From Mobula hypostoma (lineage: Eukaryota), in contig NC_086097.1 in assembly GCF_963921235.1 (NCBI RefSeq), forward strand, positions 104,100,001-104,164,000: a stretch of 64,000 nucleotides of DNA, written 5' to 3'. The notes beneath the pieces were generated by a model. That model was not told the DNA's origin. It saw only the letters and a list, made by a program, of their open reading frames with translations, and searched no databases. Below, in pieces: positions 2,940 to 63,975 of the stretch (position 1 is the first letter of the stretch; the number at the start of each line of letters is the position of its first letter). The translations under genes and the position numbers were made by a program.

Positions 2940-5520
2940 AGCATAGTATAACACTGTAAAGACTATTTGGCCCATGATATTGTCCCACATTGCTCCTCAC
3001 ATTGCCTTTAAACCTTACCCTCTAAATTTAAAGTCATGTCATCTGGTGTTCCTACCCACAGAGATTCTGACTGTCTACCCTTTCTATGCCCCTCATAATT
3101 TTAAAGCCTCTATCTGCTCCAGGGAAACAATCCAAGTTTGTCAAATCTTTCCTTGTCGCTAATAACCTCTAATCTCTCTTTCTCTGTAACTCTGAATCAT
3201 AGAGCACTACCACACAGAAACAGTACCTTTGGTCCATCTCATTTGTGCTGAAGTATTATTTTGCCTAGTCCTATCGTTCTTGCCCCTCCATTCCATGTAC
3301 TTATACAAACTTCTCTGTAATGTTGAAGTTGAATCTGCCTCCACCACTTACCCTGGCAGCTTGTTCAGCACTTTCACCATCCTCTGAGTGAAGAAGTTAC
3401 CATTCATGTTCCCCTTAAATATTTCGCCTTTCACCATTAACCCATGACTTTTAGTTCTAGTCTCACCCAACCTCAGTGGGAAAAGCCTGCTTACATTTGC
3501 CCTATCTGTACCCCTCATAATACTTCTCTCGAACCTTCATATCTCCCCTCATTCTCCTATGCTTCAGGGAATAAATTACCAGTCCATTCAATCTTTCCCG
3601 ATAACTCAGGTCCTCAAATCTTGGTGACATACTTGAAAATTTTCTCTGTACTCTGTAAATTATATTCATACATTTCCTTTAGGTAGGTGATCAGAGCTGC
3701 ACACAATGCTCATAATAGGCCTCACCGAAGTCTTATACAACTTCAACATAACATTCCAACTCCTGTCCTGAATACCTTAATTTATGAAAGCCAATGTGCC
3801 AAAGCTCCCTATATACCTGAGATGCCACTTTCAAGGAATGGATCTGTATCTCCAAATCCCTTTGTTTTATCACATTCCTTAGTGCCCTACTGTGTACTGA
3901 GTCCCCTCCTTTACTCCCTGTATACCCATGACTGTATCGCCACCCACAGCTCCAATCTGCTAATTAAATTTGCTGACGATACTACATTGATTGGCCTTAT
4001 CTCAAACAATTACAAGGTGGCCTACAGGGAAGAAGTCATCTCTGTGATACAGTGGGATCAGGAAAACAACTTCTCCCTCAATGTTGCAAAAACAAAGGAG
4101 CAGGTTGTGAATTACAGGAGGAATGGAGTTGGGCTAACCCCTATTGACATCAATAGATCTGGGGTTGAGAGGCATCCACATCACCGAGGACCTCAGTGAT
4201 CCACAGTGGTACACAACGGTGCCTCTTTCACCTCAGACAGTTGAGAAAGTTTGGTATGGGCCCCAAATCCTAAGAACTTTCTACAGGGGCACACCTGACT
4301 GGCTGCATCACTGCCTGGTATTGGAACTGTACCTCCCCTAATCGTAGGATTCTGCAGAGAGTGGAGCGGCCAGCCCAGTGCATCTGTAGCTATGAACTTC
4401 CCATGATTCAGGACATTTACAAGGACAGGTGTGTAAAAAGGGCCCATAGGATCATTGGGGACCCAAGCCATCCCAACTGCAATCTATTCCAGCTGCTACC
4501 ATCTGGGAAGCGGTACCACAGCATAAAAGCCAGGACCAACAGGCTCCGGGACAGGTTCTTCCACCAGGCCATCAGACTGATGAATTCATGCTGACTTGAG
4601 TGTACTCTATTTATTATAAATTACTATAATTGCATATTTAGATGGAGACGTAATGTAAAGATTTTTACTCCTTGTTTTGTGAAGGATGTAAGAAATAAAG
4701 TCAATTCAATTAAGTACTGTGCAAGTCCTATCCTGGTTTGTCCTTCCAAAGTGCAACACCTCACACTTGTCTGCATTAAATTCCATCTGTCATTTTCATT
4801 CCATTTTTCCAGCTGGTCCAGATCCCACGGCAAAGTTTGATGGTCCTCCTCACCCCCAATTTTGGTGTCATCTGCAAATTTGCTGATCCAGTTAACCACA
4901 TTATCATCCAGATCATTGATATAGATGACAATCAACAATGGACCTAGCACTGAGCCCTGCTGCACACTGCTAGTCCCAGGCCTCCTGTCAGAAGCAACTA
5001 TCTAATACCACTGTAGCTTCTCCTGTGAAGCCAATGTTTAATCCAGTTTATGATCACATCCTGAACGCCAAGCAACTGAACCTACTTGACCGACCTCCCG
5101 TGTAAGACCTTGTCAAAGGCTTTGCTAAGTCCATGTAGACAACATCCACTGTCTTTCCTTCAATAACTTTCCTGGTACACCTGAAAAGCTTTTAAAGGGT
5201 CTGAGTGAATACCTTGTCAGGTCACGGGGATGGGGATTTATTCATCCTAACTTGCCTCAAGACAGCAAGCATTTCCTCTTCTGTAATCGTATGTGATCCA
5301 TGAGCTCACTGCTGTTTTACCTCAATTCTCCAGATTCCGTTTGTCTCCCAAGTAAATACAAATATCAAAAAAAAAATCAATTTAAGATTTTCAATTCTTT
5401 CAGAGTGGCATCCTGGTAAACTATTACTGCACCTTTTCTGTTGTCTGCATCCTTCCTGTAATGGAGTGACCAGAACTGCACACTACTACCAAGTGTGGTC
5501 TGACTATAAAGTTTGATAAA
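2940..5520 (-). mobile_element. Decayed CR1 LINE pieces (antisense), split by a Rex insertion
   Basis: ORF 4624-4965 reads [36 protein letters not shown]; antisense 3' UTR sequence at about 3190-3880. Confidence 0.75.
3890..4712 (+). mobile_element. Rex1/Babar LINE, 5'-truncated
   Basis: CVLSPLLYSLYTHDC...KFADDTTLIGLISNN and GDPSHP...LFQLLPSGKRY...RTNRLRDRFFHQAIRLMNS; tail aataaagtcaattcaatt. Flanked by TACTGTG at 3888-3894 and 4715-4721 (target duplication or microhomology). Confidence 0.85.
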
Positions 5521-8374: not shown

Positions 8375-8480
8375 TTCAAGAGTCCTGCCAAAGGGTTTTG
8401 GCCCGAAAGTTGACTGTACTGTTTTCCATAGATGCTGCCTGGCCTGCTGAGTTCCTCCAGCATTTTGTGTGTGTTGCTTT
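8375..8480 (+). mobile_element. Penelope-like terminal repeat fragment with decayed hammerhead
   Basis: agtc-CTGCCAA-A-GGG-ttttgg-CCC-GAAA-gtt-gact followed by atagatgctgcctggcctgctgagttcctccagca, matching the terminal repeat at 54810-54960. Confidence 0.75.
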
Positions 8481-14839: not shown

Positions 14840-17800
14840 CAAGAAGGATGAGACTGCACCGGCGCATGACATAGACAGGACAGCGCGAAGTGTTTAAAAA
14901 GGAGACCACCCTATACAGTGGGCAGCGGAGTGTAGGGCTTTGGCTCAACAGGCTTAACAGGAAGAGGCGAGAGCGAGACACCAACTTTTTTTTCCCCTTG
15001 GCGAATCGGCCCGGACAGACAGAGGAACAGCAGAGCTCACACAACTAACGGTACGAGCTAACAGTTTATAAAGGTTCATGTGTTTGGCGAGGTAAGTAGG
15101 TGCATAGACTTAATTTTCCTTATTTCATTCCTGTAGAATTAGGTAGCATACCTGCAGGGTTAGTGCTTTGTTCAGGGTGTCAGATGTGGGAATCCTGGGA
15201 GACCTCCAGCCTCCCTGATGGCCACATCTGTGCCAGGTGCACCAAGATGCAGCTCCTCAGAGACCGTGTTAGGGATCTGGAGCTGTAGCTTGATGACCTA
15301 CTGCGTATTATGGAAAGTGAAGAGGGGATAGACAGGAGCTACAGGGAGGTAGTCATCCCTAGGCTACAGGGATCAGAAAACTGGGTGACTGTCAAGAGAG
15401 GGAAGGAAAATGCCTGGATAGTGGAGAGCACCCCTGTGGCTGCCCCCCTTAGCAACAAGTATCTCGTTTTGGATGCTGTTGAGGGGGACGACCTGACGGG
15501 GGACGCCCATGGTGACCGGGTCTCTGGCACTGAGCCTGGTGCTGTTGTGCAGGAGGGAAGGAGGGAGAAGAGGAATGTAGTAGTCATAGGGGATTCCATA
15601 GTCAGGGGAACAGACAGGAGATTCTGTGAGCCTGACAGAGATACCCACATGGTGTGTTGCCTCCCAGGTGCCAGGGTACGGATGTCTTGGATCGGGTCCA
15701 GAATATTCTGAAGGGGGAGGTTGAACAGCCAGCTGTCTTGGTACATGTTGGTACCAATGACATAGATAGGAAAAGGGAGGAGGTCCCGAAGAGAGATTTC
15801 CGGGAGTAGGAAGGAAGCTGAGAAGGAGGACCTCCAGGGTAGTAATCTCAGGATTGTACCTGTGCCACGTGCTAGTGAGGGCAAGAATAGTAGGATCAGG
15901 TAGATAAATGCATGGCTGAGAGACTGGTGCAGGGGGCAGGGCTTCAGATTCTTGGATCATTGGGAACTCTTCTGTGGGAAGTATGACCTGTTTAAACTGA
16001 TTTGGCAGGGGGATGGGAACCGGAATGATAGAGCAGAGGAGGGGGAAAACAGAAATAAATCTAAGATAGTGAGCAGTAAAGATGTCAGGAAGGACAGGCA
16101 TGTGATGGGGCAAATTTGTAGCCATTGGGATGAGTTGCAGTGCAAACAAAGCAAAAAGTACCAAATACCGGACTTAAGGTGTTATACTTAAATGCACGCA
16201 GCATAAGGAATAAGGTGGATGATCTTGTCGTACAGCTACAGATTGGTAGTTATGATATTGTGGCCATCACTGAGACGTGGCTAACGGATGCATGTCTCTG
16301 GGAGCTGAATGTCCAAGGATACACAGTGTATCGGAAGGATAGGCAGGTTGGCAGAGGGGGAGGCATGGCTTTATTGGTAAGAAAAGATATTAACTCATTA
16401 GATAGAGGTGACATAGGATCGGAAGGTGCAGAATCTTTGAGTTCAGCTAAGAAATCGCAGGGGTAAAAGGACCCTGATGGCAGTTATGTACAGGCCTCCA
16501 AACAGCTGCAGTGATGTGCACTACAAATTACAACAGGAAATAGAAAAGGCTTGTCAGAAGGGCAGTGTTATGATTGTGGGGGATTTTAACATGCGAGTGG
16601 ATTGGGAAAATCAGGTCGGCACTGGATCTCGAGAGAGAATTTGTAGAATATCTGCAAGATGGCTTTTTAGAACAGCTTGTTGTTGAGCCCACTAGGGGAT
16701 CGGCTGTACTGGATTGGGTATTGTGTAATGAACCAGAGGTGATTAGAGAGATTGAGGTGAAGGAACCTTAGGAGGCAGTGATCATAACATGATTGAGTTC
16801 ACTGTGAAATTTGAGAAAGAGAAGCCGAAATCTGATTAATCGGTATTTCAGTGGAGCAAAGGAAATTACAGTGGCATCAGAGAGGAACTGGCCAAAGTTG
16901 ACTGGAAAGGGACACTAGTGGGAAGGACGGCAGAGCAGCAGTGGCTGGAGTTTATGCTAGAAGTGAGGAAGGTGCAAGACAGATATATTCCAAAACAGAA
17001 GAAAGTTTCGAATGGAAAAAGGATGCAACCGTGGCTGACAAGAGAAGTCAAAGCCAAAGTTAAAGCAAAGGAGAGGGCATACAAGAAAGCAAAAATGAGT
17101 GGGAGGACAGAGGATTGGGAAGTTTTTAAAAGCTTGCAAAAGGAAACTAACAAGGTCATTAAAAGGGAAAAGATGAACTATGAAAGGAAGCTAGCAAATA
17201 ATATCAAAGAGGATACTAAAAGCTTTCTCAAGTATATAAAGAGTAAAAGACAGGTGAGAGTAGATATAGGACCGATAGAAAGTGATGCTGGAGAAATTGT
17301 AATGGGAGATAAGGAGATGGCAGAGGAACTGAACAAGTATTTTGCATCAGTCTTCACTGAGGAAGACATCAGCAGAATACCGGACACTCAAGGGTGGCGG
17401 GGAAGAGAAGTGTGCACAGTCACAATTACGACAGAGAAAGTACTCAGGAAGCTGAATAGTCTAAAGGTAGATAAATCTCCCGGACCAGATGGAATGCACC
17501 CGCGTGTTCTGAAGGAAGTAGCTGTGGAGATTGCGGAGGCATTAGCAATGATCTTTCAAAAGTCGATAGATTCTGGCATGGTTCCGGAAGACTGGAAGAT
17601 TGCAAATGTCACTCCGCTATTTAAGAAGGGGGCAAGGAAGCAAAAAGGAAATTATAGACCTGTTAGCTTGACATCGGTGGTTGGGAAGTTGTTGGAGTCG
17701 ACTGGCAAGGATGAGGTTACAGAGTACCTGAAGGCATATGACAAGATAGGCAGAACTCAGCAACCTTAAAGGAAAATCCTGCCTGACAAACCTATTGCAA

Positions 17801-18940
17801 TTTTTTGAGGAAATTATGAGTAGGCTAGACAAGGGAGATGCAGTGGATGTGTATTTGGATTTTCAGAAGGGCTTTGACAAGGTGCCGCACATGAGGCTGC
17901 TAAACAAGATAAGAGCCCATGGAATTATGGGAAAGTTACATACGTGGATAGAGCGTTGCCTGATTGGCAGGAAACAGAGAATGGGAATAAAGGGATCCTA
18001 TTCTGGTTGGCTACCGGTTACCATTGGTGTTCCACAGCGGTCTGTGTTGGGGCCGCTTCTTTTTATGTTGTATATCAACGATTTGGATTATGCAGTAGAT
18101 GGTTTTGTGGCTAAGTTTGCTGATGATACAGAGATAGGTGGAGGGGCCGGTAATGCTGAAGAAACAGAGTCTGCAGAGAGACTTGGATAGATTGGGAGAT
18201 TGGGCAGAGAAGTGGCAAATGACAATACAATGTTGGAAAGTGTATGGTGATGCACTTTGTTAGAAGAAATAAACAGGCAGACTATTATTTAAATAGGGAG
18301 AGAATTCAAAGTTCTGAGATGCAATGGGACTTGGTAAACTCTTAAGGTTAACCTCCAGGTTGAGTCAGTGGTGAAGAAGGCGAATGCAATTTTGGCATTC
18401 ATTTTGAGAGGAATAGAGTATAGGAACAGGGATGTGATGTTGAGGATCTATAAGGCACTGGTAAGACCTCACTTGGAGTACTGTGTGCAGTTTTGGGCTC
18501 CTTATTTAAGAAAGGATGTACTGATGTTGGAGAGGGTACAGAGAAGATTCACTAGAATTATTCTGGGAATGAGAGGGTTAACATATGAGGCCCGCTTAAC
18601 CGCTGTTGGACTGTACTCCTTGGAGTTTAGAAGAATGAGGGGGGACCTCATAGAAACATTTGAAATGTTGAAAGGCATGGACAGAGTGGATATGGCAAAG
18701 TTGTTTCCCATGATGGGGGAGTCTAGTACGAGAGGGCATGACTTAAAGATTGAAGGGCGCCCATTCAGAACAGAGATGAGAAGAAATTTTTTTAGCCAGA
18801 GGGTGGTGAATCTGTGGAATTTGTTGTCACAGACGGCAGTGGAGGTCAAGTCATTGGGTGTATTTAAGGCAGAGATCCGAGTAGCCAGGGCAATGGGCTG
18901 AATGGCCGACTTCTCCTTTGTCTAATGTCTTATGGTCTAA
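14840..18940 (+). mobile_element. Near full-length degenerate CR1 LINE (5' UTR, ORF1 zinc finger + SGNH esterase, ORF2 APE-RT)
   Basis: CSGCQMWE...HICARC; VVVIGDSIVRGTD; LKVLYLNARSIRNK...AITETWL; KSPGPDGMHPRVLKE; YLDFQKGFDKVPH; KFADDT; 3' tail. Several stops, frameshifts and deletions. Confidence 0.92.
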
Positions 18941-19609: not shown

Positions 19610-21100
19610 CAGCAACACACACAAAATGCTGGAGGAACTCAGCAGGTCCAGCAGCATCTATGGAATTTAATAAACAGTTGGTGTTTCGGGCTGAGACCCT
19701 TCAGGAATGGAAAGGAAGAGGGAAGGCACCAGAATAAAAAGGTTGGTGGGGGGAAAGGAGGACCATCTAGAAGGAGATAGGTGAAGCCAGGTGGGTGGAA
19801 AAGCTAAAGAGCTGGAGAAGAAAGGCTCTGATCGGAGAGGAGAGTGAGTCATGAGAGAAAGGGAAGAAGGTGGAGCACCGCGGCAGATGACGAGAAGAGA
19901 TAAGAGGGCAGAGTGGGGAATAGAAGAAGAGGGAAGGAGTTAAAATTGATGTTCATGCCATCAGGTTGGAGATTAGCTAGCCGGAATATGAGGTATCTCT
20001 CCCTGAGAGTGGTTTCATCATGGAGGAGGCCATGGACTGACATATTGGAATGGGGATAGGTATGGGTGGCCACCAGTAAATTACACTTTTGGTGAATGGA
20101 GTGGAGGTGCTTGACAAAGCGGTCCCCTAATTTATGTTGCACACAAAATGCTGGAGGAACTCACCAGGCCAGGCAGCATGTATGGCAAAGAGTAAACAGT
20201 TGACATTTTGGACAGAGACCCTTCATCAGGACTAATTTATGTTGGGTCTCATCAATGTAGAGGAAGCAGCATCCGGAGCACCAGGTACAACAGATGACTG
20301 CAACAGATTCACAGGTGAAGTGTTGCTTCACCTGGAAGGATTGTTTGAGGCCCTGAATGGAGGCAAGGGAGAAGGTGAATGGGTAGGTGTAGCATTTCTG
20401 TTGCTTTATGGATATGTGCTTGGAGGGAGATTAGTGGAGAGGGACAAATGGATAAGGTAATCAGAGAGAGCAATGTCTGCAGAAAGTATTGGTGGGGGGG
20501 GGAGAATAGGTGAAGATGAGTTTGGAGGTAGGATCCCAATGAAAATGGTGGAAGCAGAGAATGATGTGCTGGAGAGGTAGGCGAGGCCAAGAGGAATTCT
20601 ATCCCTGTAAGGTGGGGTGAGCATGGATGCACGGGAAATGGAGAAGATGCAAGTGAATGTCGCATCAAGGAAGGGAAACCCTTTTCTTTGGAAGGAGGAA
20701 GACATCTTTCCTCGAAAGCCTCATCCTAGGAACAGATAGAGCAGAGACAAAGGAACTGAGAAAAGGGAATTGGATTTTTACAGGAGACGAGTGGGAAAAG
20801 GTATAGTCAAGATTGGTGTGGGAGTTCGTAGGGTAATGTTTGTAGACAATTTGTCTCTAGAGATGAAAAAGGAGGAGAGAGGTGTCAGAAATGGACCAAG
20901 TGAATTGAAGGGAGGAAGTTGGAGGCAAAGTTGATGAAATAGACAAGGACTGCATGGATGCATGAGGCAGCCCAATGCATGTTATTGTAGTGCAGGAAGA
21001 TTTGGGAAGCATTACCATGAAAGGCTTGGCACATGTAGCCAACGAAAAGGCAGGCATATCTGTGGCCCTTATGGGTGCCCATGCTTACCTCTCAAGTTTG
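19610..21100 (-). mobile_element. Decayed Penelope-like element (RT and GIY-YIG remnants) with an extra terminal-repeat copy at 20140-20235
   Basis: YACLFVGY, LGDRFVKHL and LIFRLANLQPDGMNINF align with the element at 54.8-57.4 kb; terminal repeat at 19610-19710. Confidence 0.8.
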
Positions 21101-22440: not shown

Positions 22441-23142
22441 CAGTGGTGCTAGAAAGTTTGTGAACCCTGTAGAATTTTCTCAAGTTTGTATAAATATGAT
22501 CTAAAATGTGATCAGACCTTCACTTAAGTCCTAAAACTACAAATGTTTGTCGATAAATAGAACCTAATTAAATAAATAACACAAAAAACATTATACTTGT
22601 TCATTTATTTATTAAGAAAAATGATCCAATATTACATGTTTGTTGTGCTCCCTTTGTACAACAATAACGTCAATCAAATGTTTCCAGTAACTTGATCAGT
22701 CCAATATATCGGCTTGGAGGAATTTTAGGCCATTCTTCCTTAGAAAACTGCTTCATCTCTGGGATGTTGGTGGGCTTCCTTGGGTAAACTGCTTGCTGCA
22801 GGTCATTCCACAACACTTCTATGGGATTAAGATCAGGACTTTGACTCGGCCATTCCAAAACACAAATTTTCTTCTTTTAAACCATTCTGTTGTTGATTTA
22901 TTCTTTTGTCTTTCGAACATTGTCTTATTGCATTATCCAACTTCTATTAAGCTTCAGGTGATGGACTGCTACCCTGACATTCTCCAGTAAAATGTCCTGA
23001 TACAATTTTGAATTCATTGTTCCCTCAACGATTGCAAGCTGTCCATGCCCTGAGGTAGCAAAGCAGCCCCAAACCATGATGAAGTGCCCTTTTTCCTCCA
23101 AGCATAATGGTGTGTAATTCTGCCAAAAAGTTCAACTTTTAT

Positions 23143-24660
23143 AATAGTGGATGCATTAGTGATAATTTTTCAAAACTCTTTAGATTCTGGACTAGTTCCT
23201 GAGGATTGGAGGGTGGCTAATGTAACCCCACTTTTTAAGAAAGGAGGGAGAGAGAAACCAGGGAATTATAGACCGGTTAGCCTAACATCGGTGGTGGGGA
23301 AACTGCTAAAGTCAGTTATCAAAGATGTGATAACAGCACATTTGAAAAGCGGTGAAATCATCGGACAAAGTCAGCATGGATTTGTGAAAGGAAAATCATG
23401 TCTAACGAATCTCATAGAATTTTTTGAGGATGTAACTAGTAGAGTGGATAGGGGAGAACCAGTGGATGTGGTATATTTGGATTTTCAAAAGGCTTTTGAC
23501 AAGGTCCTACACAGGAGATTAGTGTGCAAACTTAAAGCACACGGTATTGGGGGTAAGGTATTGATGTGCATAGAGAATTGGTTGGCAGACAGGAAGCAAA
23601 GAGTGGGAATAAACGGGACCTTTTCAGAATGGCAGGCAGTGACTAGTGGGGTACCGCAAGGCTCAGTGCTGGGACCCCAGTTGTTTACAATATATATTAA
23701 TGACTTGGATGAGGGAATTAAATGCAGCATCTCCAAGTTTGCGGATGACACGAAGCTGGGTGGCAGTGTTAGCTGTGAGGAGGATGCTAAGAGGATGCAG
23801 GGTGACTTGGATAGGTTAGGTGAGTGGGCAAATTCATGACAGATGCAATTTAATGTGGATAAATGTGAAGTTATCCACTTTGGTGGCAAAAACAGGAAAA
23901 CAGATTATTATCTGAATGGTGGCCGATTAGGAAAAGGGGAGGTGCAACGAGACCTGGGTGTCATTATACACCAGTCATTGAAAGTGGGCATGCAGGTACA
24001 GCAGGCGGTGAAAAAGGCGAATGGTATGCTGGCATTTATAACAAGAGGATTCGAGTACAGGAGCAGGGAGGTACTACTGCAGTTGTACAAGGCCTTGGTG
24101 AGACCACACCAGGAGTAATGTGTGCAGTTTTGGTCCCCGAATCTGAGGAAAGACATCCTTGCCATAGAGGGAGTACAAAGAAGGTTCACCAGATTGATTC
24201 CTGGGATGGCAGGACTTTCATATGATGAAAGACTGGATGAACTAGGCTTGTACTCGTTGGAATTTAGAAGATTGAGGGGGGATCTGATTGAAACGTATAA
24301 AATCCTAAAGGGATTGGACAGGCTAGATGCAGGAAGACTGTTCCCTATGTTGGGGAAGTCCAGAACGAGGGGTCACGGTTTGAGGATAAAGGGGAAGCCT
24401 TTTAGGACCGAGATTAAGAAAAACTTCTTCACACAGAGAGTGGTGAATCTGTGGAATTCTCTGCCACAGGAAACAGTTGAGGCCAGTTCATTGGCTATAT
24501 TTAAGAGGGAGTTAGATATGGCCCTTGTGGCTAAAGGGATCAGGGGGTATGGAGGGAAGGCTGGTACAGGGTTCTGAGTTGGATGATCAGCCATGATCAT
24601 ACTGAATGGCGGTGCAGGCTCGATGGACCGAATGCCTACTCCTGCACCGATTTTCTATGT
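23143..24660 (+). mobile_element. Young 5'-truncated CR1 (RT and C-terminus, two premature stops)
   Basis: ORFs 23147-23839, 23843-24118 and 24122-24577 are nearly identical to the 62119-63543 protein; tail ttctatgt; probable TTTAT target duplication. Confidence 0.92.
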
Positions 24661-27159: not shown

Positions 27160-27845
27160 CGCAGCATTGAAATGAGGCACCTGTATCTCTATTTCCCACA
27201 CATCTGCCCCCATCTCTTCTACCTCCAACATGATAGGGATATGGTTCTTCTTTATTCTCACCTACTACACAAAAAACCTCCATATTTAACACAACATTCT
27301 CCAGTTTTCGCCATCTCCAGTGGAATCCCACCATCAATCTCATATTCCCCTCTCCCCTCCTCTTTCTCCAGGTATATCTCTCTCTGGACTCGCTTGTTTG
27401 CTTATCCCTCCCCACTGATTCTCCTCCAGGCACATATCCCTGTAATCATGGCTAATAGATGGTTACATCTGCCCCTGCCATCTCTCTCACCACCATGCAG
27501 GCCCAAAACAATCCTACCAGATGAGGTAGCACTTCACATATGAATCCATTGGGCTAAGTTATTGTATCTGATGCTCCCGGTGCAGCCATCTCTACATCGG
27601 TGAGATTCAACTTCATTGAGCACCTTTGCTCTGTCCATCAAAAAAGTGAGGACCTTCTGGAGGTTACCTTTGTAATTCCACTTCCCATTCCTATACTGGC
27701 ATGTGTGTCCATAGCCACCTCTGTTGCCACATTGAAGTCAAGCACAGTCTTGGTAGTCTCCAACCTCATGGCATCAACTCTGATTCTTTTAACTTGCCTT
27801 ATTCACTCCCACACCCCCCCCCCTTTTGCTTTCCCTTATCCCTTT
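27160..27845 (+). mobile_element. Decayed Penelope-like fragment
   Basis: Nucleotide similarity to the late RT and GIY-YIG region of the 54.8-57.4 kb element (tattgtatctgatgctcccggtgcagccatctctacatcggtgaga). Confidence 0.65.
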
Positions 27846-28505
27846 GGCTCTTGGATCAACAAATTCGTGAATGACATGAAGTTTGAGGCTATAATGGACA
27901 GGAAGGAAGACCATCAAAACTTGCAGCAGGATCTGGACCAGCTGGAAATATGGTTTGAAAAATGGCAGATGGAATTTAAAACAGACAAGTGTGAGGCTTT
28001 CACTTTGTGAGTACAAACCAGTATCAGACTTGTACAGTGAATGGTAGGACACTGACAATGCAGTAGAACAGAGGGATCAGGGAATACAGATCCATAATTC
28101 CTTGAAAGTGGCGTCACAGGAAGATGGGGCTTGTAAAGAAAGCTTTTAGTACATTGGCCTTTATAAATTAAAGTATTGAGTGCAGGAGTTCTGCTATTAT
28201 GTTGTTGTATGCGTTGGTGAGGCCAAATTTGAATTATTGTGTGTAGTTCTGGTCACCTACCTACAGGAAAAATATCAATAAGGTTGAAAGAGTACAGAAA
28301 ATCTACCAAGATTTTGCTGGTACTTGAGGGCTTGATTGGTAGGGAAAGGTTGAATAAATTATGACTTTATGTCCTGGAGCTGAGAAGAAAGAGGGAAGAT
28401 TTGCTAGTTTTCTAGTATTTTGTGTGTGTTGCTGAGGGAAGATTTGATAGAGGTCTAAAAAGATTGAGGGATATAGAGAGGATAAATGTGAGCAGGCTAT
28501 TTCCA
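27845..28505 (+). mobile_element. Decayed CR1 RT fragment
   Basis: SWINKFVNDMKF...LQQDLDQLEIWFEKWQMEFKTDKCE. Confidence 0.75.
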
Positions 28506-28524
28506 ATCTTCCCCAATAGAGGAG

Positions 28525-28870
28525 GAAATTTTGATTGGGGGAATCTTCCCTCCCTCTCCCTTCTATTCCTCATTCTGTCCTCTTACCTTTTCTCACCTGC
28601 CTATCATCTCTGCCCCTCCCTTTCTCCTATGTCCACTCTCATATCTGATTCCATTCTTTCCAGCCCTCTTCCTTTGCTACTCACCTGGCTTTACTTATTA
28701 CCTTCTAGCTGTCCTTCCACTCTCTGCCCCCTTTTATTTTAGTGCCCCCCCCTTTACTTTCTAATCCTGAAGAAGGATCTCGGCCTGAACCATCGACTAT
28801 TTATTCATTTCTGTAGATGTTGCCTGAGTTGCTGAGATCCTCCAGCATTTTGTATGTCTTGTCCAGATGT
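28525..28870 (+). mobile_element. Penelope-like terminal repeat with decayed hammerhead
   Basis: Pyrimidine-rich body, then atcCTGAAGA-aggatctcggcct-GAAC-catcgact and gatgttgcctgagttgctgagatcctccagcattttg. Confidence 0.7.
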
Positions 28871-30745: not shown

Positions 30746-31299
30746 TGCTGCTGCTGCCACACACTAATGTCAGAGACAATAATCTCGATTCTGATTCTGT
30801 TTCATGCACATCCAAAATGATAATTTCAACTTGTATTGGTCTAGATTTCACTATTTCACGTTGGTCGCTGTTGTCCTTTCTGCTCTAATTACCCTCAGCC
30901 AAAATACACCCCAGCTACTACTTCGTATGTACAGTGTTACTGAAAACTTTTGCTTTAGTGTTTCTATCTGTGGATTCTTGCAGCCTGTAAATTGGCTGTT
31001 GCATTTCCCATATTGAAGCAAAATCAATATTTAAATAAAACCTGAAAATGCTGCATTCAGGTTTGGCAGTTACAGGTCCAATGAAGGATTTCTGCCCTGA
31101 TGTATATTAACTGCTTTCCTTTCAGTTTCTGCCTGAATTGCTGATTGTTTTTATTTCATGTTTCCATTATTTGCATTTGCTTTGACTGGCAATATTTAAA
31201 TAGTGCTTCATTCTGTCAAGTGCTTTGGGACGTTCTGAGGTGGTTTAAAAACATTTGTTTGACATTTGTAATTGTGACTGATGTATTTAATTGATGAGC

Positions 31300-41239: not shown

Positions 41240-42390
41240 GCAAAGAGCAAGTGGCATCTGATAGGAAAGTTAGTGGAGAGGATTCTGAGGGATGAGATAC
41301 ACATGCGTCTTGAAAAGCAGGAGTTGATTCAGGGTAATCAGCATGGCTTTGTGCATGGGAGATCAGGTCTTGTGAATTTGAGTCTTTTGATGTGACCAGG
41401 AAAGTTGATGAAAGTAGAGTGGTTGATGTGGTTTATAAGGCCTTTAAGGTTTCACAAGGTAGGCAGCTCTGGAAGGTTAGATCACATGGAATCTAGGAAG
41501 AGCTGGCAAATTGGATATGTGATTGGCTTGATAGAAAACTGAGGGTGATGTTGGAAGGGTATTTCTTGGACTAGTGGTGTACCTCAGGAGTCGGAGCTGT
41601 TTCCATTGTTGTTTGTCATCTGTATTCATAATTTAAATGAGAATGTACAAGGCATGGTTCGTAAGCTTGCAGATGACACTAAAATAGCTGGTATAGTGGA
41701 GAATGAGGCAGGTGATCAAAAACTAGAGAGATCTTGATTTGCTGAGTAAGTGAGCCGAGGAATGACAAATGAAATTTAGTTTGGATAAATGTGAGGTTTT
41801 TCATTTTGCTCTGTCAAATCCAAGTAGGAATTTCAGTGAATGGCAGGGCTGTGATGAGTGTTGTCAAGCAGTGGGACTTGGAGTATTGTATTTAGTTTTG
41901 GTTGCTGTGCTATAGGAAAGATGTGAATATTTTCTGTTCGGTTTTATAACAAGTCTGTTGCCAAGATTTGAAGGACTGAGTTATAGGGAGCAGTTGGACA
42001 AACTAGGACTTTATTCCTTGGAGTGTAGGAGACTGAGAGTTGATGTATCGAAGTGAAAACAATTATCAGGAGTATAGGTAGAGTGAATGCACTCTTTTTT
42101 TCCATGTGGTTGGGGAATTAGAGGGCATGGGTTTAAGGAGAGGAGGAAAGATTTCATAGGAACTTAAGGACAATATTTTTTGTACAAAGGGTGTTAGCTA
42201 AGCAGATTGAACAGCCAGTGGAATTGGTTGAGGCAGGTACAACTTTAAAAGGCAGTTGGATAGGTATGTGGATTGGAACTATTTAGAAGGTTATGGGCCA
42301 AATACTGGCAAATGGGATTAAGTTGGATGAGACATCTTGGTTGGGATGGACCGGTTGAGCTATAGTGCCTTTTTCTGTGCTCTCTAACTC
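41240..42390 (+). mobile_element. Old decayed CR1 RT and 3' end
   Basis: cagcatggctttgtgcatggg (QHGF), aagcttgcagatgacactaaaatag (KxADDTK) and a CR1 tail. Confidence 0.75.
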
Positions 42391-45119: not shown

Positions 45120-45845
45120 TGTTGAATGTCACAAACAAAGGAGCTGGTGGTGGACTACAGGAGGAATGGAGACTGGCTAAACCCTATGGACATCGATGGA
45201 TCTGAGGTTGAGAGGGTAAACAGCTTTAAGTTCCTCAGAATACACATTATTGAGGATCTCACGTGGTCTGTACACACCAGCTGTATGGTAAAAAAGGCAC
45301 AACAGCGTCTCTTTCACGTCAGATGGTTGAAGTTTGGTTTGGACCCCCAAATCCTAAGAACTTTCTATAGGGGCACAATTGAGAGCATCTTGACTGGCTG
45401 CATCACTGCCTGGTATGGGAACTGTACCTCCCTTAATCACAGGACTCTGCAGAGAGTGGTGCAGACAGCCCAGCGCATCTGTAGATGTGAACTTCCCACT
45501 ATTCAGGATATTTACAAACACAGGTGTGTAAAAAGGGCCTGAAGGATCATTAGAGACCCAAGTCACCCCACTCACAAACTGTTCCAGCTGCTAGCATGCG
45601 GGAAACGGTACTGCAGCATAAAAGCCAGGATCAGCAGTCTCCGGGACAGCTTCTTCCACCAGGCCATCAGACTGCTTAACTCACGCTGACACAACTGTAT
45701 TTCTATGTTATATTGACTATCCTGTTGTACATACTATTTATTATAAATTACTATAATTGTACAATGCACATTTAGACGGAGATGTAACATAAAGATTTTT
45801 GCTTCTCATGTATATGAAGGATGTAAATAATAAAAGTCGATTCAG
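45120..45845 (+). mobile_element. Rex1/Babar LINE 3' fragment (same family as 3890-4712)
   Basis: TKELVVDYRRN...VERVNSFKFL...ILRTFYRGTIESILTGCITAWYGNC; matching tail. Confidence 0.88.
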
Positions 45846-46189
45846 TTGGCTGGGTTGAATGAATGGAAAAATGTGGGTGCATATGTGTGATCTGAGAACA
45901 CTTGCATCTGGCTGAAAGCAGTGTTGTGCAACTACTGAGGCTGGTCATAGAACTTCTCAGCACAAATAGGCCATCTCGTCCATCCCCAACTTATTTTGTC
46001 AAGACCCATCAACTTGCACCTGGACCATTCCCTTCCCATCCATTAATTATACAAACTTCACTTAAATGTTGAAATTGAACCTATATCCATCACTTCTGCT
46101 AGTAGCTCGTTCCACACTCTCACCACCTGTAAAGAAATTCCCCTTAAACATTTCACCTTTCACCATTAACCCATGACCTCTAGTTCTAA

Positions 46190-46388
46190 CACAAAATGCT
46201 GGAGGAACTCAGCAGACCAGGCAGCATCTATGGAAGAATATTCAGTTGACATTTTGGGCGAGACCCTTCAGCAGGACTGAAATGTCAATTGTTTTTTATT
46301 GCATAGATGCTGCCTGGCCTGCTGAGCTCCCCCAGCATTTTGTGCATGTTGCTTGGATTTCCAGCATCTGCAGATTTTCTCTTGTTTG
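46190..46388. mobile_element. Fold-back solo Penelope-like terminal repeat with 16-bp target duplication, inside an antisense CR1 tail (45945-46450)
   Basis: Inverted copies of the terminal repeat; duplication TGACCTCTAG(T/C)TCTAA at 46174-46189 and 46389-46404; the empty site is visible in the related CR1 at about 3445-3460. Confidence 0.85.
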
Positions 46389-46484
46389 TGACCTCTAGCT
46401 CTAATCTCACCCAACCTCAGTCGAAAAAGCCTGCTTGCACTTTATCTATGTCCTACACAACGTGTAATCTTTTATTTATATATC

Positions 46485-53900: not shown

Positions 53901-54809
53901 CTTTTTTCTTTAGAAATTGTACCCTCTAGTTTCTGTTTTAAAAAAAAATACAATTCTTGACACTTCTCAGCATTGAGTTATTGATAGAAGTAAGGGAGGA
54001 AATTGCAAAAGCCCACATCATGATCTTATTTAGAGTATTGGGACAGTTGGAAGAGGGTTGGCAAACTGTCAATGTTACACCATTAAAGTTATATAAGGTA
54101 AGCTAATAACCTCAAACAAGTCAGTTGAATGCATTCCTGGAGAAAATTCCAAAGACACTTCTGAATTCATTGTTGATAGGTAGAATAGATCTTGCTTGTG
54201 TGTTAAACTAATTGTTGTAATTCATGGAAAAGTCCTTTAGATATTATGCAATGTTTGTCCACTGTTAACACATTTGGGAATGTTCCCTAATCTAATATAG
54301 ATGGTGAAATGAAGGTAGATCAATCTCCAAGGTCTGACCGGGTATCTCTGAGAACACAGAGATATTGTGGGAGCTCTGGCTGAGATATAAGCATGGTCAT
54401 TAATGATGAGTGAAATTCCAAAAGACAGGCGGCTGATGTTGTATCTTTTTTTTTTAAACAAAGGCTACAAAGAAATTCTGGGAATTATATACCAGGAAGC
54501 GTAACATCTGTGGCAGGTATGCTACTAGAGAGGATACTGAGGGATTAGATATACAAGCATTTGGAAAGTAGCTTGATTTGAATAATCGGCGTGGTTTTAT
54601 GTACGGGAGATCATGTCTCATGAATTAGCGGTTTTTGAGGAAGTATCCAAGAAGGTTGATGAGAGCAGGACCATAGACATGGTCTACATGGACTTCAGAA
54701 AGGGCTTTGATATGCTGTGGAAAGTTGAATCACATGGAACATAGGAACAGCTAGCTTTCTTGTATACACAATTGGCTAGATGGTAGGAAGCAGAGGGTAA
54801 TGATGGAAG

Positions 54810-57377
54810 CGCAAACCCGAGGAAATCTGCAGATACTGGAAATTCAAGCAACACACACAAGAAGTGCTGGTGAACGCAGCAGGCCAGGCAGCATCTATAG
54901 GAAGAGGTACAGTCGACGTTTCAGGCCGAGACCTTTCGTCAGGACTAACTGAAAGAAGAGCTAGTAAGAGATTTGAAAGGGGGAGGGGGAGACCTGAAAT
55001 GATAGGAGAAGTCAGGAGAGGGAGGGATGGAGCTAAGAGCTGGACAGTTGATTGGCAAAAGGGATACGAGGCTGGAGAAGGGAGAAGATCATGGGATAGG
55101 AGGCCTGGGGAGAAAGAAAGGGGAAAAAATAATAATAAATAAGTATGGGATGGGGGAGGAAGGAGAGGTGGGGCATTAACGAAAGTTAGAGAAGTCAATG
55201 TTCATGCCATCGGGTTGGAGGCTACCTAGACGGAATATAAGGTGTTGTTCCTCCAACCTGAGTGTGGCTTCATCTTGACAGTAGAGGAGACCATGGATAG
55301 ACATATCAGAATGGGAGTGGGACATGGAATTAAAATGTGTGGCCACTGGGAGATCCTGCTTTCTCTGGTGGACAGCAAAACGGTCTCCCAGCCTGCGTCG
55401 GGTCTCGCCAATATATAGAAGGCCGCATCGGGAGCACCGGATGCAGTATATCACCCCAGCTGACTCTCAGGTGAAGTGTCACCTCACCTGGAAGGACTGT
55501 CTGGGGCCCTGAGTGGTGGTGAGAGAAGAAGTGTAAGGGCATGTGTAGCACTTGTTCCACTTATAAGGATAAATGCCAGGAGGGAGATCGGTGGGGAGAG
55601 ATGGGGGGGACGATAGGATAAGGGAGTTGCGTAGGGAGTGATCCCTGCGGAAAGCGGGGGGGGGGGAGGGAAAGATGTGCTTAGTGGTGGGATCCCGTTG
55701 GAGGTGGTGGAAGTTACAGAGAATTACATGTTGGACCCGGAGGCTGGTGGGGTGGTAGGTGAGGACCAGGGGAACCCTATTCCTAGTGGGGTGGTGGGAG
55801 GATGGAGTGAGAGCAGATGTGCGTGAAATGGGGGAGATGCGTTTGAGAGCAGAGTTGATGGTGGAGGAAGGGAAGCCCCTTTCTTTAAAAAAGGAGGACA
55901 TCTCCTTCGTCCTGGAATGAAGAGCCTCATCCTGAGAGCAGATGCTGCGGAGACGGAGGAATTACGAGAAGGAGATGGTATTTTTGCAAGAGACAGGGTG
56001 GGAAGAGGAATAGTCCAGGTAGTTGTGAGAGTCCGTAGGTTTATAGTAGACATCAGTAGATAAGCTGCCTCCAGAGATAGACAGAAAGATCAGGAAAGGG
56101 GAAGGAGGTGTTGAAAATGGACCCGGTAAACTTGAGGGCAGGGTGAAGGTTGGAGGCAAAGTTAATGAAGTCAACGAGCTCAGCATGCGTGTAGGAAGCA
56201 GCGCCAATGCAGTCGTCGATGTAGCGAAGGAAAAGTGGGGGACAGATACCAGAATAGGCACGGAACATAGATTGCTCCACAAAGCCAACAAAAAGGCAGG
56301 CATAGCTGGGACCCATACGGGTGCCCATAGCTGCACCTTTAGTTTGGAGAAAGAGGGAGGAGCCAAAGGATAAATTATTAAGAGTAAGGACTAATTCTGC
56401 TAGATGGAGCAGAGTGGTGGTAGAGGGGAACTGATTAGGTTTGGAATCCAAAAAGAAGCGGAGAGCTTTGGGACTTTCCTGATGGGGGATGGAAGTATAT
56501 AAGGACTGGACATCCATGGTGAAAATAAAGCGGTGGGGGCCAGGGAACTTAAAATCATTGGAAAAAATTCAGAACGTGAGAAGTGTCATGAACATAGATC
56601 GGAAGGGATTGAACAAGGGGGGATAAAACAGTGTCGAAGTATGCAGAAATGAGTTCAGTGGGGCAGGAGCAAGCTGAGACAATGGGTCTACCTGGACAGA
56701 CAGGTTTGTGGATCTTGGGTAGGAGGTAGAAACGGGAAGTGCGAGGTGTGGGAACTATAAGGTTGGTGGCAGTGGATGGGAGATCCCCTGAGCGGATAAA
56801 GTCGGTGATGGTGTGAGAGACAATGGCCTGGTGCTCCTTAGTGGGGTCACGATCGAGGGCTAAGTAAGAGGAGGTAGCCGCAAGTTGTTGCTGTGCCTCG
56901 GCAAGGTAGAGGTCAGTGCGCCAGACTACAACAGCACCTCCCTTATCAACGGGTTTTATAGTAAGGTTAGGATTAGTGAGGAGGGAGTGGAGAGCAGAGC
57001 GTTGGAAGGCGTGAGGTTGGACTTGGAACAAGGTGTGGTGAAGTTGAGAAGGTTGATGTCCCGTCGGCAGTTGGGGATAAAAAGGTCCAGAGCAGGCAGG
57101 AGGCCAGAGCGGGGTGTCCATGAAGGGGAGGAGGGTTGAAGACGAGAGAAAGAGTGATTGGTGGGGGTGGGAGAGTCCTTGCCGAAGAAGTAGGCTTGAA
57201 GACGGAGCCGGCGGAAGAAGAGTTCAGCGTCATGGCGGACGCGGAACTTGCTGAGGTGTGGGTGAAGGGGGACAAAGGTTAAGGCCCTTACTGAGGACAG
57301 AGGGCTCTGCCTCAGAGAGTTGAAGGTTGGAGGGGATGGCACGGATGAGAGCTGGGATCGGGGGGGGAGGGGGGAGG
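54810..57377 (-). mobile_element. Penelope-like retroelement (probably Neptune clade): RT, GIY-YIG endonuclease, terminal repeat
   Basis: IKPVDKGGAVVVW, FYLLPKIHKP..PGRPIVS, MDVQSLYTSIPH, GAAMGTRMGPSYA, FLRYIDD, YYKPTDSHNYLDYSSSHP, Cys linker NKCYTC, IYCIRCSRCGLLYIGETRRRLGDRF. Frameshifted. Confidence 0.93.
54911..54946 (-). ncRNA. Minimal type I hammerhead ribozyme motif
   Basis: AGUC-CUGACGA-A-AGG-ucucgg-CCU-GAAA-CGUC^GACU: stem I AGUC/GACU, intact core, stem II AGG/CCU, palindromic ACGU helix III, GUC cleavage triplet. Confidence 0.8.
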
Positions 57378-57759
57378 GTTGTGACTTGAGGTCGGTGCTA
57401 GGCTTGCTGTTCGTCATCTGTATAAATGATTAGGGTGAGAATATAGAAGCCGTAGTTAGTAAGTTGGTGGCTGACATGAGAATAGGTGGTTTTGCAGACT
57501 GTGAAAATGTTTACACAATTTAGAGTAATCTTGATCAGCTGGGGAAGTGGGCCAACAAATGGCAAATTGAGTTTAATTCTGATAAGTACAAGATACTATA
57601 TTTTGGCATGTATAATCCAGCTGGAATTTTACAGTGAATGGCAAGGCCCTGGTAAGTGTTTTAAAACGCAGGGACCTAAGAGTTACATGTAATTGGTTCC
57701 TTGAAAGTGGAATGGCTGATTGATAGGGTGGTGAGGAAGGCTTTTGGAATGCTAGATTT

Positions 57760-59834: not shown

Positions 59835-62800
59835 ATAAAACAGCACAGTACAGGCCCTTAGGCCCACAGTGTTGTGCCGACCCTCAAACCCTGCCTCCCA
59901 TATAACCCCCCACCTTAAATTCCTCCATATACCTGTCTAGTAGTCTCTTAAATTTCACTAGTGTGTCTGCCTCCACCACAGACTCAGGCAGTGCATTCCA
60001 CGCACCAACCACTCTCTGAGTAAAAAACCTTCCTCTAATATCCCCCTTGAACTTCCCACCCTTACCTTAAAGCCATGTCCTCTTGTATTGAGCAGTGGTG
60101 CCCTGGGGAAGAGGTGCTGGCTATCCACTCTATCTATTCCTCTTATTATCTTGTACACCTCTATTATGTCTCCTGTCATCCTCCTCCTCTCCAAAGAGTA
60201 AAGCCCTAGCTCTCTTAATCTCTGATCATAATCTATACTCTTTAAACCAGGCAGCATCCTGATAAATCTCCTCTGTACCCTTTCCAATGCTTCCACATCC
60301 TTCCTATAGTGAGGCGACTGGAACTGGACACAGTACTGCAAGTGTGGCCTAACCAGAGCTTCATAGAGCTGCATCTTGCGACTCTTAAACTCTACCCCTC
60401 GACTTATGAAAGCTAACACCCCATAAGCTTTCTTAACTACCCTATCTACCTGTGAGGCAACTTTCAGGGATCTGTGGACATGTACCCCCAGATCCTTCTG
60501 CTCCTCCACACTACCAAGTATCCTGCCATTTACTTTGTACTCTGCCTTGGAGTTTGTCCTTCCAAAAAAGCTCACTTCTCTGGGTTGAACTCCATCTGCC
60601 ACTTCTCAGCCCATTTCAGTATCCTATCAATATGTCTCTGCAATCTTCGACAATCCTCTACACTATCTACAACACCATCAACCTTTGTGTCATCTGCAAA
60701 CTTGCCAACCCACCTTTCTACCCCCACACCACTAGTCACAACCCTCCAATCCGAATGTTACTCCCTCCGTCACGACCCTCTGCCTTCTGCAGGCAAGCCA
60801 ACTCTGAATCCACCTGGCCAAACTTCCCTGGATCCCATGCCTTCTGACTTTCTGAATAAGCCTACCGTGTGGAGCTTGTCAAATGCCTTACTAAAATCCA
60901 TGTAGATCACATCCACTGCACTACCCTCATCTATATGCCTGGTCACCTCCTCAAAGAACTCTATCAGGCTTGTTAGACATGATCTGCCCTTCACAAAGCC
61001 ATGCTGACTGTCCTTGATCAGACCATAGTTCTCTAAATGCCCATAGATCCTATCTCTTAAGAATCTTTTCCAACAGCTTTCCCACCACAGACATAAGGCT
61101 GACTGGTCTATAATTACCCAGACTATCCCTACTACCTTTTTTGAACAGGGGGACAACCTTCACCTTCCTCCAATCCTCCGGTACCATCCGTGGACAACGA
61201 GGACATAAAGATCCTAGCCAAAGGCTCAGCAATCTCTTCCCTCGCCGCGTGAGCAGCCTGGGGAATATTCCATCAGGCCCTGGGGACTTATCCGTCCTAA
61301 TGCATTTTAATAACTCCAACACCCCCTCTCCCTTAATATCAATATGCTCCAGATCATCAACCTCACTCATATTGTCCTCGCCGTCATCAAGTTCCCTCTC
61401 ATTGGTTAATACCGAAGAAAAGTATTCATTGAGGATCTCACTCACTTCCACAGCCTCCAGGCACATCTTCCCACCTTTATCTCTAATCGGTCCTACCTTC
61501 ATTCCTGTCATCCTTTTGTTCTTCACATAAATGAAGAATGCCTCGGGGTTTTCCTTTACCCTACTCACCAAGACCTTCTCATGCCCCCTTTTTGCTCTTC
61601 TCTGCCCTTTCTTGCTTCCCTATATTCCTCAAAAGACCCATCTGATCCCTGTTTCCTAAACCTCATGCATGCTGCCGCCTTCCACCTGACTAGATTTTCC
61701 ACCTCACTTGTCACCCATGGTTCCTTCACCCTACCATTCTTTATCTTCCTCACCAGGACAAATTTATCCCTAACATCCTGCAAGAGATCCCTAAACATCG
61801 ACTACATGTCCATTGTGCATTTCCCTGCAAAAACATCATTCCAATTCACACCTGCAAGTTCTAGCCTTATAGCCTCATAATTTGCCCTTCCCCAATTAAA
61901 AACTTTCCTGTCCTTTCTGATTGTATCCTTTTCCATGGTAATGCTAAAGGCCAGGGAGCGGTGGTCACTGTCCCCCAGATGCTTAGCCACAGAGATCTGT
62001 GACCTGACCCGGTTCATTACCTAATACTAGATCTAGTATGGCATCCCCCTAGTTGGCCTGTCATTATACTGTGACAGGAATCTGTCCTGGACACACTTAA
62101 CAAACTCTGCTTTATTTAGTGATAAATTTAGTGATAATTTTTCAAAACTCGTTAGATTCTGGACTAGTTCCTGAGGATTGGAGGGTGGCTAATGTAACCC
62201 CACTTTTTAAAAAAGGAGGGAGAGAGAAACCGGGGAATTATAGGCCGGTTAGCCTAACGTCGGTGGTGGGGAAACTGCTGGAGTCAGTTATCAAGGATGT
62301 GATAACAGCACATTTGGAAAGCGGTGAAATGATCGGACAAAGTCAGCATGGATTTGTGAAAGGAAAATCATGTCTGACGAATCTCATAGAATTTTTTGAG
62401 GATGTAACTAGTAGAGTGGATAGGGGAGAACCAGTGGATGTGGTATATTTGGATTTTCAAAAGGCTTTTGACAAGGTCCCACATAGGAGATTAGTGTGCA
62501 AACTTAAAGCACACGGTATTGGGGGTAAGGTATTGGTGTGGGTGGAGAATTGGTTAGCAGACAGGAAGCAAAGAGTGGGAATAAACGGGACCTTTTCAGA
62601 ATGGCAGGCGGTGACTAGTGGGGTACCGCAAGGCTCAGTGCTGGGACCCCAGTTGTTTACAATATATATTAATGACTTGGATGAGGGAATTAAATGCAGC
62701 ATCTCCAAGTTTGCGGATGACACGAAGCTGGGTGGCAGTGTTAGCAGTGAGGAGGATGCTAAGAGGATGCAGGGTGACTTGGATAGGTTGGGTGAGTGGG

Positions 62801-63975
62801 CAAACTCATGGCAGATGCAATTTAATGTGGATAAATGTGAAGTTATCCACTTTGGTGGCAAAAATAGGAAAACAGATTATTATCTGAATGGTGGCCGATT
62901 AGGAAAAGGGGAGGTGCAACGAGACCTGGGTGTCATTATACACCAGTCATTGAAAGTGGGCATGCAGGTACAGCAGGCGGTGAAAAAGGCGAACGGTATG
63001 CTGGCATTTATAGCGAGAGGATTCGAGTACAGGAGCAGGGAGGTACTACTGCAGTTGTACAAGGCCTTGGTGAGACCACACCTGGAGTATTGTGTGCAGT
63101 TTTGGTCCCCTAATCTGAGGAAAGACATCTTTGCCATAGAGGGAGTACAAAGAAGGTTCACCAGATTGATTCCTGGGATGGCAGGTCTTTCATATGAAGA
63201 AAGACTGGATGAACTGGGCTTGTACTCGTTGGAATTTAGAAGATTGAGGGGGGATCTGATTGAAACGTATAAGATCCTAAAGGGATTGGACAGGCTAGAT
63301 GCAGGAAGATTGTTCCCGATGTTGGGGAGGTCTAGAACGAGGGGTCACAGTTTGAGGATAGAGGGGAAGCCTTTTAGGACCGAGGTTAGGAAAAACTTCT
63401 TCACACAGAGAGTGGTGAATCTGTGGAATTCTCTGCCACAGCAAACTGTTGAGGCCAGTTCATTAGCTATGTTTAAAAGGAAGTTAGATATGGCCCTTGT
63501 GGCTACAGGGGTCAGGGGGTATGGAGGGAAGGCTGGGTTCTGAGTTGGATGATCAGCCATGATCATAATAAATGGCGGTGCAGGCTCGAAGGGCCGAATG
63601 GCCTACTCCTGCACCTATTTTCTATGTTTCTATGTTTCTATGCTCCGTCTAAACTCTTGGAACTAATCAGGTGCCAATCAATATTAGGGAAGTTAAAGTC
63701 ACCCATGATAACAACCCTGTTATTTTTGCACCTTTCCAAAATCTGCCTCCCAATCTGCTCGGTATCTCTGCTGCTACTAGGGGGCCTATAGAATACTCCC
63801 AATAGAGTAACTTCTCCCTTCCTGTTCCTGACTTCCACCCATACTGACTCAAAAGGGGATCCTGCTACATTACCCACCCTTTCTGTAGCTGTAATAGTAT
63901 CCCTGGCCAGTAATGCCACCCCTCCTCTCCTTTTCCCCCTTCTCTATCCCTTTTAAAACACTGAAATCCAGGAAT
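59835..63975 (-). mobile_element. CR1 ORF2 (APE-RT-3' UTR), antisense, interrupted by a young CR1 and a Tigger
   Basis: ORFs 63638-63919 (VFYRPP, MGDFNFP), 61802-62017 (LGDSDH), 61050-61571, 60770-61156 and 59958-60602. Confidence 0.9.
62112..63640 (+). mobile_element. Young 5'-truncated CR1 with an uninterrupted 474-codon RT/C-terminal frame
   Basis: ORF 62119-63543 has no stops ([34 protein letters not shown]); (TTTCTATG)n tail; TGCT duplication (62108-11 and 63641-44). Confidence 0.95.

Follow-up and report, generated by a model that had tools for sequence, protein, structure and literature searches.

The minimal type I hammerhead motif at 54911-54946 of the window (the whole 64-kb stretch of DNA analysed here) is an ordinary copy of a known Penelope hammerhead, one dead copy among very many. 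It lies in a dead, 5'-truncated Penelope-like element (PLE), and the A-U pair at positions 10.1-11.1 of its helix II very probably arose by two unlinked steps, an inherited G.U wobble and one private G>A change after insertion. The first step would have supplied U11.1, and hence the wobble, by inheritance from the dominant subfamily; the second, a private G>A at 10.1 once the element had inserted, would have turned the wobble into A-U. A previous sequence-only reading had taken the two changes for compensatory and set this copy apart by them, a claim that is not supported, as U11.1 is the family majority in two organisms (A and B) and A10.1 stands at background level. The motif carries little weight as a single copy. 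The useful point is that, at a pair that is usually G-C, the most abundant subfamily has G.U in two organisms and a third has mostly G-C, a contrast that could be used to examine a link between the strength of the ribozyme and how far Penelope elements spread.

Anatomy of the motif

Read from 54946 to 54911 on the minus strand, the motif is AGUC CUGACGA A AGG UCUCGG CCU GAAA CGUC GACU (Table 1). It has the minimal hammerhead (min-HHR) core, CUGANGA ... GAAA ... UH, with pairable helices I and II, together with two known traits of the class: an extra nucleotide, here the A at 54935, and a palindromic 15.2-16.2 with helix III minimal or absent, here ACGU. A fourth helix II pair, U.G, closes the CUCG tetraloop. 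Hammerhead numbering, applied to the sequence only, predicts the cut between C17 (54915) and G1.1 (54914). The consensus G10.1-C11.1 pair, to which published exceptions exist, is replaced by A-U in this copy and mostly by G.U in its subfamily; since 13 of 56 published representatives depart from G-C, the A-U pair is no bar to membership of the class. All four CpGs of the motif, its core and helix I are intact, and one private change lies within it. The position and letters given in the sequence-only reading, its cut site, and its description of a Penelope-like 3' terminal repeat carrying a minimal type I hammerhead whose helix III is the palindrome ACGU all agree with these features, as does its claim that no other copy in the window has a full core: a structural descriptor of the minimal type I form matches once in the 64 kb, at this motif.

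Table 1. Features of the hammerhead motif, its host element and the flanking remnants (window coordinates).
Feature	Position	Strand	Basis or remark
Older LINE-type reverse transcriptase remnant, left part	54515..54809	+	matches 41263-41557 and RVT_1-coding 62204-62471
3' untranslated/pseudo-LTR region	54810..55175	-	stop at 55176; lower end approximate
Minimal type I hammerhead motif	54911..54946	-	sequence; sole descriptor match in window
GAAA core, loop-less palindromic helix III ACGU (54919-54916), C17 (54915)	54915..54922	-	
Helix II AGGU/GCCU, CUCG loop	54923..54934	-	
Pair 10.1-11.1	A10.1 = 54934; U11.1 = 54923	-	A10.1 private; U11.1 subfamily letter
Core CUGACGA and extra A between positions 9 and 10.1	54935..54942	-	sequence
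Helix I 5' strand AGUC	54943..54946	-	pairs with 54914-54911 GACU
GIY-YIG endonuclease remnant	55176..55466	-	Pfam GIY-YIG E 4.2e-06, above curated cut-off
Reverse transcriptase C-terminal part and linker	55467..56066	-	tblastn with P0015
Penelope-type reverse transcriptase remnant, pieces over several frames	56074..57351	-	Pfam RVT_1, tblastn
Older LINE-type remnant, right part	57404..57660	+	matches 41606-41862, same sibling LINE continued

Host element and insertion site

The motif starts 229 nt past the stop codon, within the expected pseudo-LTR (pLTR), whose lower boundary is bracketed by family similarity reaching to ~54812 and flank similarity beginning at 54809. Reverse transcriptase (RT) followed by GIY-YIG in one open reading frame, the arrangement of C-terminal EN+ PLEs, is present as a pseudogene in pieces. 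The RVT_1 match (E 8e-04) falls below the Pfam cut-off; the RT piece is 84-85% identical to Mobula proteins and 76-80% to Hypanus proteins, and the best RT matches come from rays, indicating a ray-like host. Aligned by tblastn to a 955-residue homologue, the element lacks ~220 N-terminal residues and carries 4 frameshifts and 4 in-frame stops. Three in-frame stops lie in the linker-containing part, where the CX2-5CxxC motif has decayed with loss of its first cysteine. This motif is found in 52 of the 56 homologues (out of 120) that include the endonuclease start, and suggests a Neptune-type C-terminal EN+ PLE as defined in PMC8557442, here as a pseudogene; the linker does not distinguish Neptune from Nematis, which also has CX2-5CxxC in reduced form (PMC8557442).

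The two flanks match adjoining parts of one older LINE sibling at another place in the window, so the element is a single 5'-truncated Penelope insertion of ~2.6 kb that splits a LINE-type remnant. The left part of the split remnant is presumably CR1-like. The insertion has neither a 5' repeat nor a tandem partner, and the search for a target-site duplication around it gave only 6-mers, none convincing. The two flanking pLTRs or partial tandem needed for activity are thus lacking in this solo copy; partial, 5'-truncated copies are the usual case among PLEs (PMC4209133, supplement). The host element of the motif is a dead Penelope-like copy.

Letter shares at 10.1-11.1 in the wider family

Contigs of four public runs (X1, X5, X9 and X11, of 24 listed) were aligned to 54860-55000 at a likeness of at least 80%, yielding 65,328, 48,957, 13,247 and 3,272 aligned contigs, respectively. 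Differences were tabulated only for 54896 to 54965, with some left uncounted in X1. The organisms of these runs carry 25-71% of the locus's words and may not be the window's species, and an orthologous copy in organisms A and B is not separable from paralogues at 80% likeness. The letter shares are depth-weighted, derive from short contigs, lean to the reference letters and are not linked between positions.

At 11.1, C accounts for 22.6/28.9/76.2/15.3% (X1/X5/X9/X11) and U for 77/71/24/85%, the majority in three runs. X9 is mostly C11.1, which indicates that copies bearing C are readily picked up by this approach. The majority of U11.1 implies that most close kin of the 54911-54946 copy have a G.U wobble, not G-C. 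Intact CpGs in X1 and X5 show 7-12% decay, far less than the 71-85% share of U11.1, which is therefore a subfamily character. The caution attached to the sequence-only reading, that the C>T change sits at a CpG and could be chance decay, was right as to the CpG but not as to decay in this copy, since a share of 71-85% greatly exceeds CpG decay of ~10%. Decay of the same CpG on the other strand (G12>A) is low, at 3.5-4.4% in X1 and X5, consistent with that CpG being present in only some quarter of the copies.

At 10.1, G accounts for 97.2/96.8/97.5/99.6% of depth (X1/X5/X9/X11), and the remaining 2.8/3.2/2.5/0.4% is a ceiling for A10.1. The neighbouring positions show G>A at 1.7/3.1/0.8/0.15% (10.2) and 2.0/1.1/0.9/0.1% (10.3). 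The non-G share at 10.1 is therefore near the neighbours' G>A rate in X1 and X5 (1.1-3.1%); in X9 and X11 it is ~3x that rate, a figure that includes transversions and reference bias. By our own arithmetic (0.77 x 0.02-0.03), ~2% of copies are expected to have become A-U by neutral decay.

The G.U form is dominant in organisms A and B (71-85%) and not in organism C (24%). Markers at 54897, 54909, 54954 and 54961 also differ between organisms A/B and C, pointing to putative lineage-specific subfamilies. The lower number of decayed letters in X11, for which RNA is a guess, was considered as a sign of expressed young copies and rejected, as contigs from a small run drop rare variants; none of the listed public runs carrying locus words is recorded as RNA.

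Other copies in the window

Stem II is GGG/CCC in the three siblings named in the sequence-only reading (8381-8415, 19685-19705 and 46245-46279), as it had stated, but its list was incomplete, a profile search adding copies at ~20235 (-), 28762 (+) and 43012 (-), a partial copy at 46303 (+) and a weak match at 31077 (+). Among eight aligned window copies the 10.1-11.1 pair is G-C in six, G.U in one and A-U in one; at 28762 G10.1 is retained and faces U11.1, and A10.1 occurs in none of the seven copies other than 54911-54946. Covariation computed on the eight window copies only is unremarkable, with 363 of 500 shuffles reaching the observed score. The window siblings are only ~72-84% identical to the 54911-54946 copy and are thus not its closest kin. 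More generally, what looks like compensation beside a handful of old siblings can turn out to combine a subfamily letter with a single mutation.

Downstream on the same strand, the nearest motif (46278) is one whose core is broken. Two older Penelope remnants, at 21082-19611 (-) and 27191-28861 (+), are ~66% identical to the host element of the 54911-54946 motif over coding parts, and each ends in a decayed hammerhead. A terminal-repeat fragment of ~95 nt (20233-20138, -) interrupts the GIY-YIG region of an older Penelope remnant and is flanked by a 13-nt direct repeat; its start falls exactly on helix I rather than on the predicted cut site, and it lies ~530 nt upstream of the 19705 copy, the cores of both being broken. 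At ~46174-46398, two oppositely oriented terminal-repeat fragments are joined within the hammerhead and share the same 10-nt word at their outer ends; they are likely one insertion with a 5' inversion.

Constraint and decay

Variation of 2% or more is absent from all 16 non-CpG positions of the core and helix I but present at 16 of 34 positions in the flanks (Fisher p 0.0007, a post hoc value for positions that are not independent). The seven non-CpG positions of helix I are unchanged at that threshold in the contigs of the four runs. This low variation is read as constraint on the parent elements, rather than on inserted copies, because the flank variation reflects subfamilies. Once inserted, copies appear to decay roughly neutrally, since CpG decay in the core proceeds at roughly the rate seen in the loop: 7.3-11.0% and 9.7-11.6%, respectively, in X1, with the core somewhat lower in X9 (3.4-5.4% against 6.5-9.3% for the loop). 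Assuming independent decay and 1-2% change at unlisted positions, the whole core would be kept in 0.51-0.71 of aligned copies. Intact cores are therefore common outside the window, and the presence of a sole intact copy is a property of the window, not of the genome.

Folding and predicted activity

In an active tandem parent element, helix III would form between two motifs by pairing of their self-complementary ACGU, and the dimerised motifs would then cleave 3' of GUC, possibly with assistance from the protein that the element encodes; this scheme is taken from PMC4209133 and the review PMC6765202. The minimum-energy fold of the monomer is a GACG/CGUC rod at -10 kcal/mol, and the active dimer, at -10.7, is far less stable than the best alternative dimer (-28.3) in an energy model that ignores the tertiary core and protein help. 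With no intact partner nearby, a monomer rod predicted to be inactive and a dead host element, the solo 54911-54946 copy is likely inert in vivo. Position N7 (54938) is C in the majority of copies (~81-93%), which allows the core GACG to pair with CGUC across the cut site into the monomer rod, and C at N7 could, on this model, be a built-in off state.

In helix II, the energy model gives -5.1 kcal/mol for G-C, -2.5 for G.U and -3.1 for A-U. The change from G.U to A-U is thus slightly stabilising, i.e. in the restoring direction, which counts against two chance steps. Swaps to A-U or G.U at 10.1-11.1 lower hammerhead activity. No rate for either swap at G10.1-C11.1 was found in the passages of PMC544870 and PMC2837043 on that pair. 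A related Penelope motif is inactive as a monomer and weakly active as a dimer or trimer (PMC4209133). The 54911-54946 sequence could cut weakly as a dimer in vitro.

Alternative explanations

That the motif is a chance match has a negligible probability. The Rfam covariance models returned 5 matches up to E 10 with no hammerhead among them, folding of the 36-mer does not surpass that of its shuffles (z -1.13), and 8 of 200 dinucleotide-shuffled windows contain at least one descriptor match; the bare core pattern, with 5 matches against 10.5 expected, was uninformative. However, the motif stands where such a hammerhead should be, downstream of a Penelope GIY-YIG gene, displays both the extra nucleotide and the palindrome typical of the class and is common to a very large family (13,247-65,328 contigs per run in X1, X5 and X9), so that this reading is already refuted by context and family conservation. 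That the host has retained this copy as a functional cleavage site within a transcript is very improbable, if less so than chance. Its core, helix I and four CpGs are intact with a single private change while the reading frame is ruined, and two related organisms carry 54-71% of the locus's words; yet around half to two thirds of aligned copies would keep the core, so intactness is not a sign of selection, and no intact partner lies in the window. Nor was a clear host gene apparent when 71 long open stretches were compared with Pfam, a search that would miss short exons and that gave retroelement domains and one ALKBH8_N.

True compensation, in which a small active lineage passed from G-C through G.U to A-U by fixing A10.1 on U11.1 and left the 54911-54946 copy as a descendant, is improbable. 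A lineage of this kind comprising up to about 3% of copies is compatible with the unlinked letter shares, and it would have regained a Watson-Crick pair ~0.6 kcal/mol better than G.U; A-U is also the state of 3 among the 56 published representatives (counted by hand in Fig. S3 of PMC4209133), and the non-G share at 10.1 reaches 3% of depth and exceeds the neighbours' G>A in X9 and X11. In X5, however, that share barely differs from the G>A of a neighbouring position (3.2% vs 3.1%), it does not track the U11.1 share over the four runs, neutral decay alone would give ~2% of copies this appearance, and the other window copies lack A10.1. It is similarly a long shot that ray Penelope subfamilies record a walk of the 10.1-11.1 pair in which G.U swept two organisms and not a third, with the 54911-54946 copy in an active A-U lineage; if this were true, G-C, G.U and A-U would form a natural series on whether weaker cleavage favours element spread. 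Inheritance of the wobble followed by one private change remains the preferred account of the pair, and it can be combined with another, unlikely but less remote, suggestion about the family mechanism: that the motif is conserved for a role other than cleavage, such as protein binding or a reverse-transcription signal, with little or no cutting in vivo. The hammerhead of the anole Poseidon element cut only with protein, its core mutants had no effect on insertion in vitro, and no RNA-seq reads started or ended at its cut site (PMC11167929); in the ray family, no pile of loose ends occurs at 54914/54915 among the best-supported ends listed, and one short insertion begins at helix I instead of the cut site. 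Against such a role, the conserved letters are exactly those of the catalytic core and helix I, as set out above, and the anole motif does cut, with C3/G8 rescue (PMC11167929).

Relation to known systems

Minimal hammerheads are massively widespread in the pLTRs of metazoan PLEs (Cervera and De la Pena 2014; PMC4209133). The present motif shares with them the type I topology, the 4-bp helix I, CUGANGA with one extra nucleotide, GAAA, the loop-less palindromic 15.2-16.2 (C-G), a 3' position in a 5'-truncated element and the mass dispersal of single copies, and differs in its short helix II of 4 bp and in the 10.1-11.1 pair, where the usual G-C (PMC4209133) has given way to A-U in this copy and, for the most part, to G.U in its subfamily. 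In a hand count from the machine-read text of Fig. S3 of that paper, the 56 representatives, among which there is no cartilaginous fish, comprise 43 G-C, 8 G.U, 3 A-U and 2 U-A, so both the G.U and A-U states are already on record (PMC4209133). Compensatory changes at 10.1-11.1 have been described in cricket satellite hammerheads (PMC2837043).

The anole element PAc likewise carries a pLTR hammerhead in a vertebrate PLE, but belongs to the Poseidon clade and has been tested in vitro with its protein (PMC11167929). Non-LTR retrozymes, reported in one chondrichthyan genome, also contain type I hammerheads derived from Penelope pLTRs; they consist of non-coding repeats in tandem, every one with its own hammerhead, in contrast to the single motif on a coding remnant at 54911-54946 (bioRxiv 10.64898/2026.07.22.740005), and the window holds no tandem units with complete hammerheads, only one full-core motif in 64 kb. 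The ray family was not found in the literature surveyed on Penelope hammerheads in sharks and rays; the supplements of the retrozyme preprint may list it.

Further observations

LINE-type RT/endonuclease remnants (RVT_1, Exo_endo_phos) occur at 274-600, 3687-5001, 16134-18187, 23108-23836 and 60773-63540, the longest open stretch among them having 480 residues (62101-63540). An open stretch at 45126-45539 (+) matches Pfam ALKBH8_N at E 1e-09. As this model often matches the C-terminal part of LINE RT proteins, the stretch is not necessarily a host gene. The family anchor motif was found in 0 stretches in viral contigs and 0 in metagenome contigs, and its one match in prokaryote genome contigs was dismissed as chance, a hammerhead not being found beside it. 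Many contigs of the public runs cease to match right at the 5' edge of helix I (54945-54946). Those ending at 54946 have a common upstream sequence like that of the 19705 subfamily; those ending at 54945 (207, 168 and 147) are heterogeneous, with an agreement of 0.32-0.34, and may reflect 5' truncations accumulating at the hammerhead edge.
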